Source of the DNA: Anaerolineae bacterium
GTDB taxonomy: Bacteria > Chloroflexota > Anaerolineae > Fen-1058
Assembly (NCBI GenBank): GCA_003154115.1
Contig: PMCF01000162.1
Coordinates: 3,958 to 28,204 of the forward strand
Reading direction: 5' to 3'
Length of the DNA stretch: 24,247 bases
The notes under the pieces are model-generated. The model was not told where the DNA came from. It ran no database searches and saw only the letters and a program-made list of their open reading frames with translations. Below, one piece after another: positions 9,298-10,352 of the stretch; the first letter of the stretch is position 1, and the number at the start of each line of letters is the position of its first letter. The translations under genes were made by a program, and so were the position numbers.

Positions 9298-10221
9298 CTA
9301 CCGAGTTGTATGCGATGATGAGAATGGCAATGTGTTGTAGAGTGGAAACCCGCCGGCCCATCGCTCGTTGGCACATTTTACTTGGCGATTCTCACCGGGC
9401 AAGTAAGGTCTTATTTCTACAGACAAGATTAAGTCCCTATATCGATAGTAATAGTAGTTACTACTCAAGTCGCCTAGTGCAGCACTCACTGTTTCAATTG
9501 GTTGAGGTAATTCCAAGACACCTGGCGCGTATCCTGACAAATTACCACAGTTATAGGCAAGATACGCTTCATAGTTTGGGCTGAATTCAAACGGCCACGC
9601 TGGAATAGTATTGTCGTTACATAGGCGATTGGGCCACTTCGGTTTATCTTGGTTGATTGTTGCGGAGCTCCACATGTTCACCCAAAGTCCTACGTAATCG
9701 GGCTGATAGAGATGCTTATCAACCTGATCTTCCTTAAGAAGCGCATTTACGATACTATGAGCAGTGCGGACGGGCTCTAGTTGCAAAGGTCTGCCCTCCA
9801 AATGTATTTCACCATAGCCTGCACTTGTGTGAGCCACAATCGTTTCGATTCCATGTGGCCCAACGGTTTCGCCGTCAATCTTCAATTGGTTGTCAAAGAA
9901 GCCAACTCTATCGAGATCGCCTGTTATTTGATCAACTTGCTCCAGAGAAACCTGCCTGTAACAGATTTGCGGCCATGCGCTTCCCCAGCATGCAAATAAC
10001 ACCAAGCCATTATCATAAACCACAAGATTAGGTACAACATATTCCATGAATGGTTGATGGAACGATCCGGTGCTCGGGAATCCGTCCCCTTGAGCTAACA
10101 GAGCGTGCGCGTCGCTAACATCAAGAATAAATCGTTGTTGGGGTGGAACAATGGCAAGATAGACGACCACAACGATCACGATTGCGATAATTAGCATCAT
10201 CAAACGATTGCGCCGCGCCAT
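9298..10221 (-). CDS. Hypothetical secreted/membrane-anchored protein (N-terminal signal-anchor helix) encoded in a low-GC island
   Basis: 307-codon ORF in DNA visibly AT-richer than its neighbours (about 9400-10350), where random ORFs of this length are unlikely. N-terminus MARRNRLMMLIIAIVIVVVVYLAIVPP. Trp/Tyr-rich ectodomain, no recognisable family. The C-terminal end is uncertain. Confidence 0.5.
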   Translation of the reverse strand: MARRNRLMMLIIAIVIVVVVYLAIVPPQQRFILDVSDAHALLAQGDGFPSTGSFHQPFMEYVVPNLVVYDNGLVLFACWGSAWPQICYRQVSLEQVDQITGDLDRVGFFDNQLKIDGETVGPHGIETIVAHTSAGYGEIHLEGRPLQLEPVRTAHSIVNALLKEDQVDKHLYQPDYVGLWVNMWSSATINQDKPKWPNRLCNDNTIPAWPFEFSPNYEAYLAYNCGNLSGYAPGVLELPQPIETVSAALGDLSSNYYYYRYRDLILSVEIRPYLPGENRQVKCANERWAGGFPLYNTLPFSSSHTTR

Positions 10222-10352
10222 TTTTTCTCTTCAGTCTTGATAGTCCTGTCTGCATATCACTACATCGCTTGCCGTGCCCGCCCAACTCGTTATTATCCTG
10301 GTTCGAGTATGCGAATGGTGAAGGCGAGGGATGGGCCAAAATCACATTCGCT

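Follow-up and report, generated by a model that had tools for sequence, protein, structure and literature searches.

In integrons, cassette sites follow the core consensus GTTRRRY and the inverse core RYYYAAC, the attC site is an imperfect hairpin of 57–141 nt, and the integrase is IntI. Atypical AT-rich accessory and ORFan genes are reportedly also found in bacterial genomes, and amelioration theory is said to describe how such a composition relaxes toward that of the host. Compositional islands are routinely read as recent transfers. Replacement flexible genomic islands carry unrelated genes at the same position in different strains (Lopez-Perez, Martin-Cuadrado and Rodriguez-Valera 2014, PMC4033161). 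At the locus described here, the compositional anomaly appears to be a stable trait of a gene family, kept across hosts and in vertical descent. The locus lies in a Thermoflexales (Chloroflexota) genome, within what we call the window, the whole 24,247-nt stretch of DNA that was analysed. We think it probable that a cassette of one gene, at positions 9298–10266, occupies a variable slot flanked by an MVP-like gene and tfoX, that its low GC is stable in the family, and that it was swapped ORF for ORF.

The low-GC patch and the slot that holds it

A preliminary description of the window had pointed to a sharp drop in GC over one 307-codon ORF, and the drop was borne out. GC in 300-nt windows is 0.447–0.470 across 9300–10200, compared with 0.58–0.64 in mutS and 0.59–0.61 in the MVP-like gene, and the lowest 900-nt window in all 24 kb is 9451–10350 (GC 0.471; 24-kb mean 0.570). 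The ORF itself, which we call gene X (9298–10221, − strand, 307 aa), has a GC of 0.468, z = −3.3 relative to all 924-nt windows, only 0.6% of which are as low. The deep trough comprises this ORF and only ~45 nt of leader; it thus covers the ORF as described, but runs from 9298 to 10266, and the range of 9400–10350 first given was shifted. tfoX forms a shallower shoulder (GC 0.50–0.52) that the sister species has too. We found that codon usage departs from that of the host along with base composition, as expected of a genomic island. GC3 is 0.458 in gene X and 0.55–0.775 in the 17 other ORFs in the window, and a leave-one-out CAI-like score gave 0.49 for gene X versus 0.70 ± 0.05 (z = −4.25). 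Codons that are rare in the other window genes make up 19.6% of gene X versus 6.4% elsewhere, and by tetranucleotide usage the gene X kilobase is the most deviant of the window. Because GC1 and amino-acid usage are shifted as well (GC1/GC2/GC3 of 0.55/0.39/0.46, with a shift in FYMINK/GARP usage), gene X looks native to a genome of about 46% GC, and such a resemblance is what a donor signature in the sequence would give.

We compared the locus with L015, a Thermoflexales MAG of a sister species in which the shared DNA, ~90% identical to the window at the nucleotide level, includes SdpI, the MVP-like gene, tfoX and mutS. Querying genomes with the MVP-like protein yielded 19 loci, of which only L015 keeps the neighbourhood. 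The features of the slot are as follows.

8622..8963, − strand: tfoX (TfoX_N; Pfam PF04993, E 7.9e-17), 113 aa, ATG after AAGGAG; conserved right flank
8982..9107, no strand assigned: near-perfect hairpin of 126 nt (inverted repeats I1 and I2; RNA fold)
9106..9251, − strand: remnant of a 255-aa lipoprotein gene (its 3' end and downstream spacer), with an in-frame stop (alignment to L015)
9252..9297, − strand: 3' flank of gene X; its L015 homologue is the spacer that separates the 181-aa from the 255-aa gene (local alignment)
9298..10221, − strand: gene X, for a 307-aa membrane-anchored protein of an unnamed family (ORF list, composition, homologues, AF2)
10222..10266, − strand: leader of gene X with a purine-rich, SD-like GAAGAG (10227–10232, 5 nt before the ATG; sequence, junction alignment)
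10353..11888, − strand: gene for an MVP-shoulder-domain protein (Pfam PF11978, E 3.9e-6); conserved left flank

The MVP-like protein is 92% identical in L015 at the amino-acid level, with 93% nucleotide identity up to the junction, and TfoX is 90% identical, the same protein being found on six contigs. Between these two genes L015, the only close relative available, lacks gene X and instead carries genes for a 181-aa protein with four TM segments and for a 255-aa lipoprotein, the latter a lipobox-protein gene intact at 12289–13056. The gene X protein has no similarity to these L015 cassette proteins. The leader (10222–10266) is specific to gene X and has no counterpart in L015 in the junction alignment. 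Downstream, 9252–9297 aligns to L015 12234–12282 with a score of 30 versus 18.5 ± 2.7 for shuffles (p ~0.007); upstream of 9251, the 3' end of the island showed no significant homology to the L015 255-aa ORF. Since the same slot with the same short flanks holds a different, unrelated gene in L015, the difference is an ORF-for-ORF replacement that is nearly ORF-precise. We infer that the swap would most simply have proceeded by recombination through the shared flanks. As far as the compared sequences go, they argue for a change of gene content at this locus. The stretch at 9106–9251, described earlier as a GC-rich non-coding gap, is in fact what is left of a deleted lipoprotein gene: these 146 bp are 87% identical to L015 12947–13092, with TAG in place of the L015 CAG. 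A separate deletion of ~660 bp destroyed this gene in the window lineage. The hairpin at 8982–9107 (RNA MFE −73.2 kcal/mol, z −9.4) is an insertion relative to L015 and stops 8 nt short of the ribosome-binding site of tfoX; it adjoins the island without belonging to it. We found no second copy, and Rfam gave only a sub-threshold miRNA match.

Identity to L015 is 0.94–0.97 over the last 450 nt of the MVP-like gene, 0.82–0.91 over tfoX and the 3' end of mutS and ~0.91 farther out; the dip near the island is weak, one-sided and drawn from a between-species comparison, with no convincing rise of divergence at the borders. Within the species, three or more independent assemblies from different samples carry an identical island, and two further conspecific contigs cover part of it. 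All contigs at 99.5–100% identity that reach the slot carry this same island, and no within-species replacement or differing version among conspecific strains was seen.

Low GC across the gene X family

A word-indexed search returned four homologues of gene X, and an exhaustive HMMER search of 1.84e9 proteins returned 21 representatives. A metagenome scan with a purpose-built WPF...RPYLPGE DNA pattern gave seven matches, six by chance and one real (L048). Composition was compared for homologues with at least one flanking gene, which amount to nine distinct contexts, at ~25–36% amino-acid identity to gene X. All nine are one-gene GC3 troughs in GC-rich surroundings, with GC 0.44–0.50 and GC3 0.36–0.48 in the homologue and GC3 0.54–0.90 in most flanking genes. 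GC3 of X versus its flanking genes was as follows.

Window: 0.458 vs 0.72
L003: 0.438 vs 0.68
L048: 0.414 vs 0.72
L054: 0.403 vs 0.77
L052: 0.363 vs 0.73
L053: 0.459 vs 0.78
L050: 0.484 vs 0.66
L049: 0.468 vs 0.71
L037: 0.430 vs 0.58–0.79 (three nearest upstream genes)

Since its relatives are equally GC-poor in GC-rich hosts, the low GC marks the gene family and does not serve to date a recent transfer. The homologues neither follow their own hosts nor, in the one pair compared (L048 and L054), show amelioration, so that the composition of gene X does not behave as one that reflects a donor. Across the family loci compared, neighbours are not conserved and the neighbouring proteins are unrelated. 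One homologue is placed between topA and a housekeeping peptidase gene; that of L050 belongs to a low-GC block of three genes that adjoins IS3, Tn3 and IS110 transposases, a setting that fits mobile-element traffic.

In L048 and L054 the homologue is syntenic, with a dS of 0.55 that equals that of the host-like neighbouring PNPOx gene (0.61) and a dN/dS of 0.16 over 314 codons. Its GC3 is unchanged between the two, at 0.39 and 0.38, and W/S class differences number 57 of 260 (0.22), compared with the 0.38 predicted for a gene on its way to the host value of 0.75; amelioration would require an ancestral GC3 of ~0.15. In this test, which used one genome pair, a crude two-state model and no outgroup, the sequences indicate that X kept its place in one lineage over a dS of ~0.55 and did not shift toward the composition of the host. 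In L048 the copy is cut short by a premature stop, 21 codons from the end. Taken with the nine contexts, these results suggest that low GC is a stable property of the family in GC-rich hosts, seated mainly at third codon positions and more weakly at first positions, and that it may persist under vertical inheritance and purifying selection. Because it persists in vertical descent, low GC dates no transfer. The preliminary description had proposed horizontal acquisition and named conservation in place with the same composition as what would count against it, and L048 and L054 present just that in another lineage. Horizontal acquisition has partial support. The atypical composition, a membrane-anchored product with no annotated family and the lineage-specific presence at this locus stand, as does the absence of the island between the MVP-like gene and tfoX in L015; the reading of low GC as a recent foreign signature is unsupported, and elsewhere the gene is conserved in place.

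These data bear directly on a plain recent transfer, in which a ~46% GC donor gene was inserted after the split from L015 and has yet to ameliorate. Such a transfer would explain why X is absent from the L015 slot and why the adjacent gene is left as a remnant; a lower-GC genome would account for GC1, GC2 and GC3 as well as for FYMINK/GARP usage, the L050 homologue adjoins transposases, and further lineage-specific genes are present inside the same 20 kb. We nevertheless regard it as rather unlikely. The same signature recurs in all nine host contexts at 25–36% protein identity, with no member in low-GC flanks, and one homologue has kept its GC3 of ~0.39 in place over a dS of 0.55, where amelioration predicts a higher W/S fraction than was observed and needs an ancestral GC3 of ~0.15. 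The other lineage-specific genes of the window have GC3 of 0.55–0.65, not 0.46, and neither a donor nor a mobility gene nor a viral relative (IMG/VR) was found.

A history with no transfer places X as an ancestral gene upstream of the 181-aa and 255-aa genes; X would have been deleted in L015, and in the window lineage the 181-aa gene would have disappeared along with most of the 255-aa gene. That the window lineage underwent at least one deletion is proven by the remnant; every sampled genome of the species carries X, and the L048/L054 pair makes long residence compatible with low GC. This history seems improbable to us, as it calls for two or three deletions, each independent of the others and rather precise. 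X shares its position, left flank and right spacer with the 181-aa gene, and the two look like alternatives in one slot and not like genes that once stood in a row.

Border repeats

The flanks of the slot carry an 11-bp inverted repeat (GTTGGGCG... / ...CGCCCAAC), with copies at the following positions.

10276..10286, − strand: repeat copy A, GTTGGGCGGGC (inverted repeat I4), 55 nt upstream of the ATG, in DNA shared with L015
9288..9298, + strand: repeat copy B, which matches A in inverted orientation at 11/11 positions (inverted repeat I4)
9251–9259, − strand: repeat copy C (GTTGGGCGC), at the end of the 3' flank of X

On the coding strand copy B reads GCCCGCCCAAC, its first letter being the G of the stop codon TAG. 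Each strand of the window has the exact 11-mer once, the 8-mer occurs six times versus 1.2 expected, and an inverted match this good at both island ends was found in one of 1500 random window pairs (empirical p ~7e-4). At position 8 the left copy departs from the native sequence of L015; the right copy matches L015, in which a weaker inverted-repeat counterpart brackets the 181-aa gene. We found no recombinase, integrase or transposase domains in the ORFs of the 24-kb window, and no integron integrase or cassette array in the window or in an overlapping 55-kb contig segment. The integrase, transposase and element-type repeat signatures expected of an island are thus lacking here, the 8–11 bp bracketing repeat having one copy that is native to L015. 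A promoter and terminator scan at the locus gave sites no commoner than in shuffles, none of them usable.

These borders could suggest that X is cargo of an integron-like, site-specific mobile cassette. Both consensus heptamers are matched, the core by GTTGGGC at 10280–10286 and 9253–9259 (− strand) and the inverse core by GCCCAAC at 9288–9294 (− strand), just after the stop. The second GTTGGGC closes the island, the three copies of GTTGGGCG sit exactly at its borders, and the window has five times as many copies of the 8-mer as expected. A left copy unlike L015 at position 8 beside a right copy that is alike is, moreover, what is expected of a crossover inside a core site. Even so, we consider this very unlikely: the putative attC measures only 42 nt (R'' to R'), with a DNA fold of −11.7 kcal/mol that is no more stable than those of shuffles (z −0.5 to −0.7), integrase and recombinase genes are absent from the 24 kb, no shared flanking repeats or attC-like sites were found at the other family loci, and on the right-hand side L015 already has a homologous spacer.

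The gene X product and its likeness to known systems

The features of the predicted protein are listed from the N-terminus.

10147..10203, − strand: signal-anchor/TM helix, codons 7–25 (LMMLIIAIVIVVVVYLAIV), preceded by MARRNR (sequence, AF2 helix 2–23)
9667..10104, − strand: beta4-alpha-beta3-alpha-beta module, residues ~40–185, with Cys78/Cys87
9583..9597, − strand: WPFEF motif, residues 209–213 (family alignments)
9391..9411, − strand: RPYLPGE motif, residues 271–277, the most conserved stretch of the family (family alignments)

An AF2 model of the protein (pLDDT 84.6, pTM 0.81) has an N-terminal helix at residues 2–23, in agreement with the signal-anchor described at the outset. The Trp/Tyr-rich character noted then also held, with Tyr at 5.9% (18/307) and Trp at ~2.3% (7/307 by hand count), each about twice the typical value. 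There is no lipobox Cys in the gene X protein, whose first Cys is residue 78. A lipobox-like ...[AS]C stands at the aligned position in ~14 of 21 aligned relatives, P0014, like the window protein, being without it. We infer from these features that the product would sit on the outside of the cytoplasmic membrane, held there by its N-terminal helix, a lipid anchor taking the place of the helix in most relatives. Scans of the gene X protein and 21 members against Pfam, NCBIfam, PADLOC and PHROGs gave no match for the family domain. The sole profile matches among family proteins are to the Reg_prop part of P0010, in which the X domain is fused to a Reg_prop propeller; in L050 a Reg_prop gene lies two genes upstream of the homologue. 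BRD4 matches in a PDB sequence-profile search were rejected as chance 'WPF' similarity. The earlier statement that the ectodomain has no recognisable motifs therefore holds for these databases and for PDB sequences, but the family has invariant motifs of its own: W209, P272-Y-L-P275 and E277 are invariant, P210, F211 and F213 nearly so, and C78/C87 are near-invariant.

A Foldseek search with the gene X model against PDB and BFVD returned nothing significant. In a structural comparison with Mago nashi (PDB 1hl6 chain B), a eukaryotic exon-junction-complex protein, the gene X model likewise has a flat antiparallel sheet, one face of which bears two long helices, and it is probably the module at residues ~40–185 that gives this Mago-nashi-like match. 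A literature search for Mago-like lipoproteins of bacteria returned nothing relevant. The ectodomain is predicted to contain a Mago-nashi-like platform of a sheet and two helices, together with cysteine pairs of the disulfide type and, as its core, the aromatic WPF...RPYLPGE. Such a protein would most plausibly act as a ligand- or protein-binding extracytoplasmic envelope module and not as an enzyme, possibly as a partner of Reg_prop beta-propeller proteins. That there is no functional feature here at all, the ORF being spurious and AT-rich, a decaying pseudogene or a chimeric assembly, is hardly credible: the family has no annotated name, sources say hypothetical protein and two conspecific contigs stop inside the island, with contig breaks at 9603 and 9624, but the motifs are conserved across 21 divergent relatives, dN/dS is 0.16, the fold prediction is confident, and independently assembled contigs from different samples agree exactly in both sequence and junctions. 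Gene X is a real, functional and constrained gene.

Gene X represents an uncharacterised envelope family with no sequence relatives of known function and a eukaryotic fold as its only structural match. Because its anomaly is stable across hosts and in descent, it offers a clean, small test case for the forces that hold a gene off its genome's composition, candidates being codon-level expression control, silencing and a lack of GC-biased conversion in variable loci. The ORF-for-ORF swap between short inverted-repeat flanks likewise offers a handle on single-gene exchange without mobile-element machinery. We tentatively entertain a joint reading that goes further: a non-ameliorating gene family may be actively kept at ~46% GC (GC3 ~0.4) in ~58% GC genomes, through codon-limited or silencer-controlled expression or through a local mutation or repair regime, and may move as ORF-precise cassettes into inverted-repeat slots, for example the arms of a former terminator hairpin. 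The product could then be the first bacterial envelope protein on a Mago-nashi-type platform.

The likeness to Mago nashi (Pfam PF02792) is confined to the fold. Identity is 10%, no Pfam match was obtained at E ≤ 1 in 21 members, hhalign gave a probability of 0.4% against a manually entered MAGOH sequence, and Foldseek gives no support. Unlike Mago nashi, X is bacterial and is predicted to be membrane-anchored and extracytoplasmic with cysteine pairs, and it has an extra C-terminal half of ~120 residues that bears the family motifs. The resemblance to integron cassettes lies in a single, promoterless-looking ORF with matches to both consensus heptamers and an inverse core at the stop; unlike them, X has no stable hairpin of attC length, no integrase and no array, and other family members are without such sites. 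With monoderm lipoproteins and tethered binding proteins the family shares a signal peptide that in most members ends in a lipobox-like Cys, conserved cysteine pairs and aromatic core with no catalytic-type invariant residues, and a domain fused to or near a Reg_prop propeller. The window protein differs in that it has no lipobox Cys and is predicted to retain its N-terminal helix as the anchor, and it resembles no known binding-protein fold. Like the AT-rich ORFans, gene X is a single lineage-specific gene with lower GC3, rare codons and no homologue of known function; unlike what the amelioration model expects, its composition is common to the whole family across hosts and, in the one pair compared, did not move over a dS of ~0.55. 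From replacement flexible genomic islands it differs in being one ORF of ~1 kb where theirs is a multi-gene glycosylation cluster, in distinguishing species (~90% identity) where theirs distinguish strains of one species, and in that their defining border peak of synonymous substitutions is not clearly present. Its products may, as in those islands, be exposed at the envelope, a prediction drawn from the TM anchor of X, the lipoboxes of its relatives, and the 4-TM and lipobox proteins of L015. What it has in common with them is the same position filled by unrelated genes and borders free of integrase or transposase hallmarks, for which exchange through flanking homology would be the simplest route.

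Base composition of gene X and its family

GC content falls to 0.447–0.470 between 9300 and 10200 of the window (300-nt windows), compared with 0.58–0.64 over mutS and 0.59–0.61 over the MVP-like gene in the same scan, and 9451–10350 is the lowest-GC 900-nt window of the 24 kb (0.471 versus a mean of 0.570). The trough coincides with one gene:

9298–10221, minus strand: gene X, a single ORF of 307 codons

We found that gene X has a GC content of 0.468 (z = −3.3; 0.6% of windows of the same length are equally low) and a GC3 of 0.458, compared with 0.55–0.775 in the 17 other window ORFs. 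Its leave-one-out codon-adaptation score was 0.49 versus 0.70 ± 0.05 (z = −4.25), codons infrequent in the remainder of the window (AGA, AGG, ATA, CTT, CTA, TTA, ACA, GTT, GTA and others) account for 19.6% of it versus 6.4% elsewhere, and the kilobase holding it is the most deviant of the window in tetranucleotide usage. Windowed GC, GC3, codon adaptation and tetranucleotides bear out the sharp drop reported in the preliminary description, which had placed it exactly over one 307-codon ORF and its upstream region; the ORF stands, with slightly shifted coordinates, and the low-GC upstream DNA is only ~45 nt long.

On balance we favour a joint reading in which X would form a working one-gene cassette encoding an envelope protein tethered to the membrane. 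Its slot would be variable, being filled by another membrane-protein gene in the sister species, and the exchange would have gone most likely by recombination in the shared flanks; the low GC of X would be a family trait that carries no time stamp. The last point is suggested by nine contexts in which a homologue has at least one flanking gene, since the homologue formed a one-gene trough in all nine.

GC3 of gene X or its homologue, and of flanking genes, in nine genomic contexts
Window: X 0.458; flank mean 0.72
L003: X 0.438; flank mean 0.68
L037: X 0.430; flanks 0.58–0.79 in the three genes nearest upstream, 0.50 in a further one
L048: X 0.414; flank mean 0.72
L054: X 0.403; flank mean 0.77
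L049: X 0.468; flank 0.71 (one neighbour)
L050: X 0.484; flank mean 0.66
L052: X 0.363; flank mean 0.73
L053: X 0.459; flank mean 0.78

On the short contigs L013, L014 and L034 the flanks are likewise GC-richer than the homologue. Each homologue locus compared has neighbours of its own, and no flanking repeats common to these loci were found; at L052, topA and an M24 peptidase gene enclose the homologue, with ffh, rpsP and rimM nearby. The bias is not purely synonymous, as homologue GC1 is also lower (0.51–0.57 versus 0.60–0.65) and FYMINK residues are somewhat enriched.

Two related genomes, L048 and L054 (82% nucleotide identity), share the arrangement PNPOx–X. Because dS is similar for X (0.55) and PNPOx (0.61), X was inherited together with its neighbour, yet GC3 in its conserved codons is 0.39 and 0.38, respectively. 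In a two-state model calibrated on PNPOx, which is crude, lacks an outgroup and includes an L048 copy with a late premature stop, relaxation toward the host value of 0.75 would need an ancestral X GC3 of ~0.15. Third positions of conserved codons differed in W/S class in 22% of cases (57/260), where relaxation predicts 38% and a stationary composition 30%. For this one vertically inherited pair, the data favour maintained low GC over amelioration.

These results bear on the horizontal acquisition proposed earlier. The absence of X from the sister-species slot is consistent with it, but the family-wide trough and the unchanged GC3 in L048 and L054 weaken the inference of a recent transfer, so that recent arrival from a donor of ~46% GC is a possible but clearly less probable account than a family trait. 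Such a composition has several candidate causes: selection may favour AT-rich or rare-codon sequence as a means of limiting or gating expression, GC-biased conversion may bypass a variable locus that recombines rarely, or genes may be exchanged continually in an accessory pool.

The slot in the sister species and its borders

When species-representative genomes were scanned with the MVP-like protein, 19 loci emerged, among which only L015 (MAG 'Thermoflexales bacterium JTS-AC314') was close and had kept the neighbourhood. Amino acid identity to the window is 92% for the MVP-like protein, 90% for TfoX and 95% for MutS (~90% nucleotide identity), which places the window in a Thermoflexales genome (Chloroflexota) of the same genus as L015. 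As anticipated, X lies between tfoX and the MVP-like gene; both are conserved in L015, the single syntenic relative, which lacks X. In the interval L015 encodes two other proteins, one of 181 aa predicted to be a four-helix membrane protein and one of 255 aa with a lipobox. Homology extends from the MVP-like gene to ~10267 and resumes in the 44 nt after the X stop (9295–9252), which match the spacer separating the 181-aa gene from the 255-aa gene in L015 (score 30 versus 18.5 ± 2.7 for shuffles), and in what had been taken for a GC-rich non-coding gap, which the L015 alignment identifies as a gene remnant:

9106–9251: gene remnant, 87% identical to the last ~110 nt of the L015 255-aa gene plus downstream spacer, with an in-frame stop

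Beyond the left flank, the remnant and the 44-nt spacer, alignments found no further shared sequence in the slot. The slots thus differ by two events: X and the 181-aa gene have been exchanged, almost precisely at the ORF boundaries, between flanks common to both genomes, and in the window lineage a ~660-bp deletion took away most of the 255-aa gene. That X was ancestral and lost in the sister species seems unlikely. All same-species contigs reaching the slot carry the same island.

The two genomes, ~90% identical, differ in gene content at four places in ~20 kb. A SAM methyltransferase (12237–13418), an alpha/beta hydrolase (15062–16769) and a zinc-ribbon protein (~18109–19555) are also absent from L015; as an internal control, their GC3 of 0.55–0.65 is below that of core genes and far from 0.46. 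An SdpI-family gene (11891–12229) shows 74% nucleotide (76% amino acid) identity to L015 versus 90–93% for both neighbours, reflecting either fast evolution or a recombined allele. A dispersed ~62-nt repeat occurs at 23892–23953 and 20116–20177 in the window and at 2754–2815 and 4208–4270 in L015 (77–79% identity). In L048, ~5920–6032 and 6393–6502 both align to one 110-nt stretch upstream of the L054 homologue, so a ~110-nt direct repeat flanks an extra 93-aa ORF there.

Repeats border the island. In DNA common to L015, GTTGGGCGGGC is found 55 nt ahead of the X ATG; its perfect 11-nt inverted copy begins at the G of the X TAG stop, and GTTGGGCGC recurs at the junction with the remnant. An inverted match as good as that of the two island ends arose in 1/1500 random window pairs, and the 8-mer has six copies in the window versus 1.2 expected. 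The L015 181-aa gene is similarly, less perfectly bracketed, by ATTGGGCG upstream and CGCCCAAC 39 nt past its stop. These motifs match the integron core and inverse-core consensus, but an integron-like cassette is very improbable: the putative 42-nt attC is no more stable than shuffled sequence, no integrase was found in the window ORFs and comparable sites were not found at other family loci. More speculatively, since a strong GC-rich hairpin lies directly 3′ of the MVP-like gene in more distant relatives, the arms could be halves of a former terminator, with ORFs placed into its loop.

Other features adjoin the slot. One is a 126-nt near-perfect hairpin at 8982–9107, with outer arms TAGAGCG...CGCTCTA and an RNA MFE of −73 kcal/mol (z −9.4). 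The sister species lacks this insertion, whose end lies 8 nt ahead of the tfoX ribosome-binding site AAGGAG. It has no second copy in the window or any other locus retrieved and no Rfam family above threshold; a MITE-like element with an insulating or regulatory effect on tfoX is one possibility. The MVP-shoulder-domain protein (10353–11888; loci L015–L033) has relatives at 57–92% identity in many Chloroflexota and Oscillatoria and at 42–43% in Cloacimonadota; strong GC-rich hairpins follow several of the genes for these relatives. A defence- or toxin-antitoxin-like pair, made up of a Schlafen/AlbA_2 plus HATPase_c_4 protein and an adjoining nucleotidyltransferase/HEPN gene (136–1503 and beyond the window start; L001 18719–20924), lies some 8 kb away from the island.

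The gene family and its protein

Among 5.8 billion proteins, a word-indexed search returned an identical protein and three relatives at 31–35% identity. An alignment of those proteins, run exhaustively with HMMER against 1.84 billion cluster representatives, returned 21 (19 with E < 1e-10). The family is real, though very rare. Over 314 codons the syntenic L048 and L054 copies have dN/dS = 0.16, and the island and its junctions are identical across independent assemblies from several samples and so not an assembly chimera; X is a genuine gene, and an artefact or pseudogene is most improbable. Three independent same-species assemblies end within the island or hairpin (L039 and L040 at 9603 and 9624, L041 at 9035), which hints at a coverage drop or strain heterogeneity there. 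In the L048 homologue, an in-frame stop replaces a conserved Trp at ~5026–5028 (minus strand), 21 codons short of the normal end; codons 3′ of it are still conserved, and the stop is either a sequencing error or a nonsense mutation that arose very recently.

The N-terminal membrane anchor described earlier is upheld: MARRNR is followed by 19 hydrophobic residues predicted as a helix. X has no lipobox cysteine; in ~14 of the 21 relatives aligned, the signal peptide ends in ...[AS]C at the corresponding position. From this helix and these signal peptides the family is therefore predicted to be membrane-tethered and extracytoplasmic, with which its conserved cysteine pairs are consistent. The domain matched no Pfam, NCBIfam, PADLOC or PHROG model and no PDB sequence, in line with the claim of no recognisable motifs, yet the family has residues of its own: W209, P272-Y-L-P275 and E277 are invariant, and C78/C87, Y69, G72, P210/F211/F213 and R271 nearly so. 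No set of invariant residues resembles a catalytic or metal site. In structural comparison of the predicted model, eukaryotic Mago nashi appears as the only neighbour; the matching part is probably residues 40–185, predicted to form four strands, a helix, three strands, a helix and a strand.

In P0010 (L049 62–2035) the X domain is fused to a C-terminal Reg_prop beta-propeller, and at L050 (6048–8930) the homologue, together with a Reg_prop protein and a lipoprotein encoded upstream, makes up a three-gene block of low GC. X may tentatively be an envelope binding platform, and the fusion and this neighbourhood suggest that it possibly works with Reg_prop propellers. The L050 block adjoins IS3, Tn3 and IS110 transposases and a SIR2 gene.

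Relation to known systems

The island itself is of an ordinary kind: a variable slot that holds a small, compositionally atypical accessory gene. Less ordinary are the family-wide, apparently non-ameliorating composition, the nearly ORF-precise swap between flanks with an inverted repeat, and a bacterial envelope family without sequence relatives of known function whose sole structural neighbour, as modelled, is Mago nashi. The closest described phenomenon is the replacement flexible genomic island, in which the same site holds unrelated genes for exposed products without mobile-element hallmarks (PMC4033161). Unlike such islands, the X slot shows no clear synonymous-change peak at its borders and no within-species variants among conspecific contigs; its unit is one gene, and its contrast lies between species.
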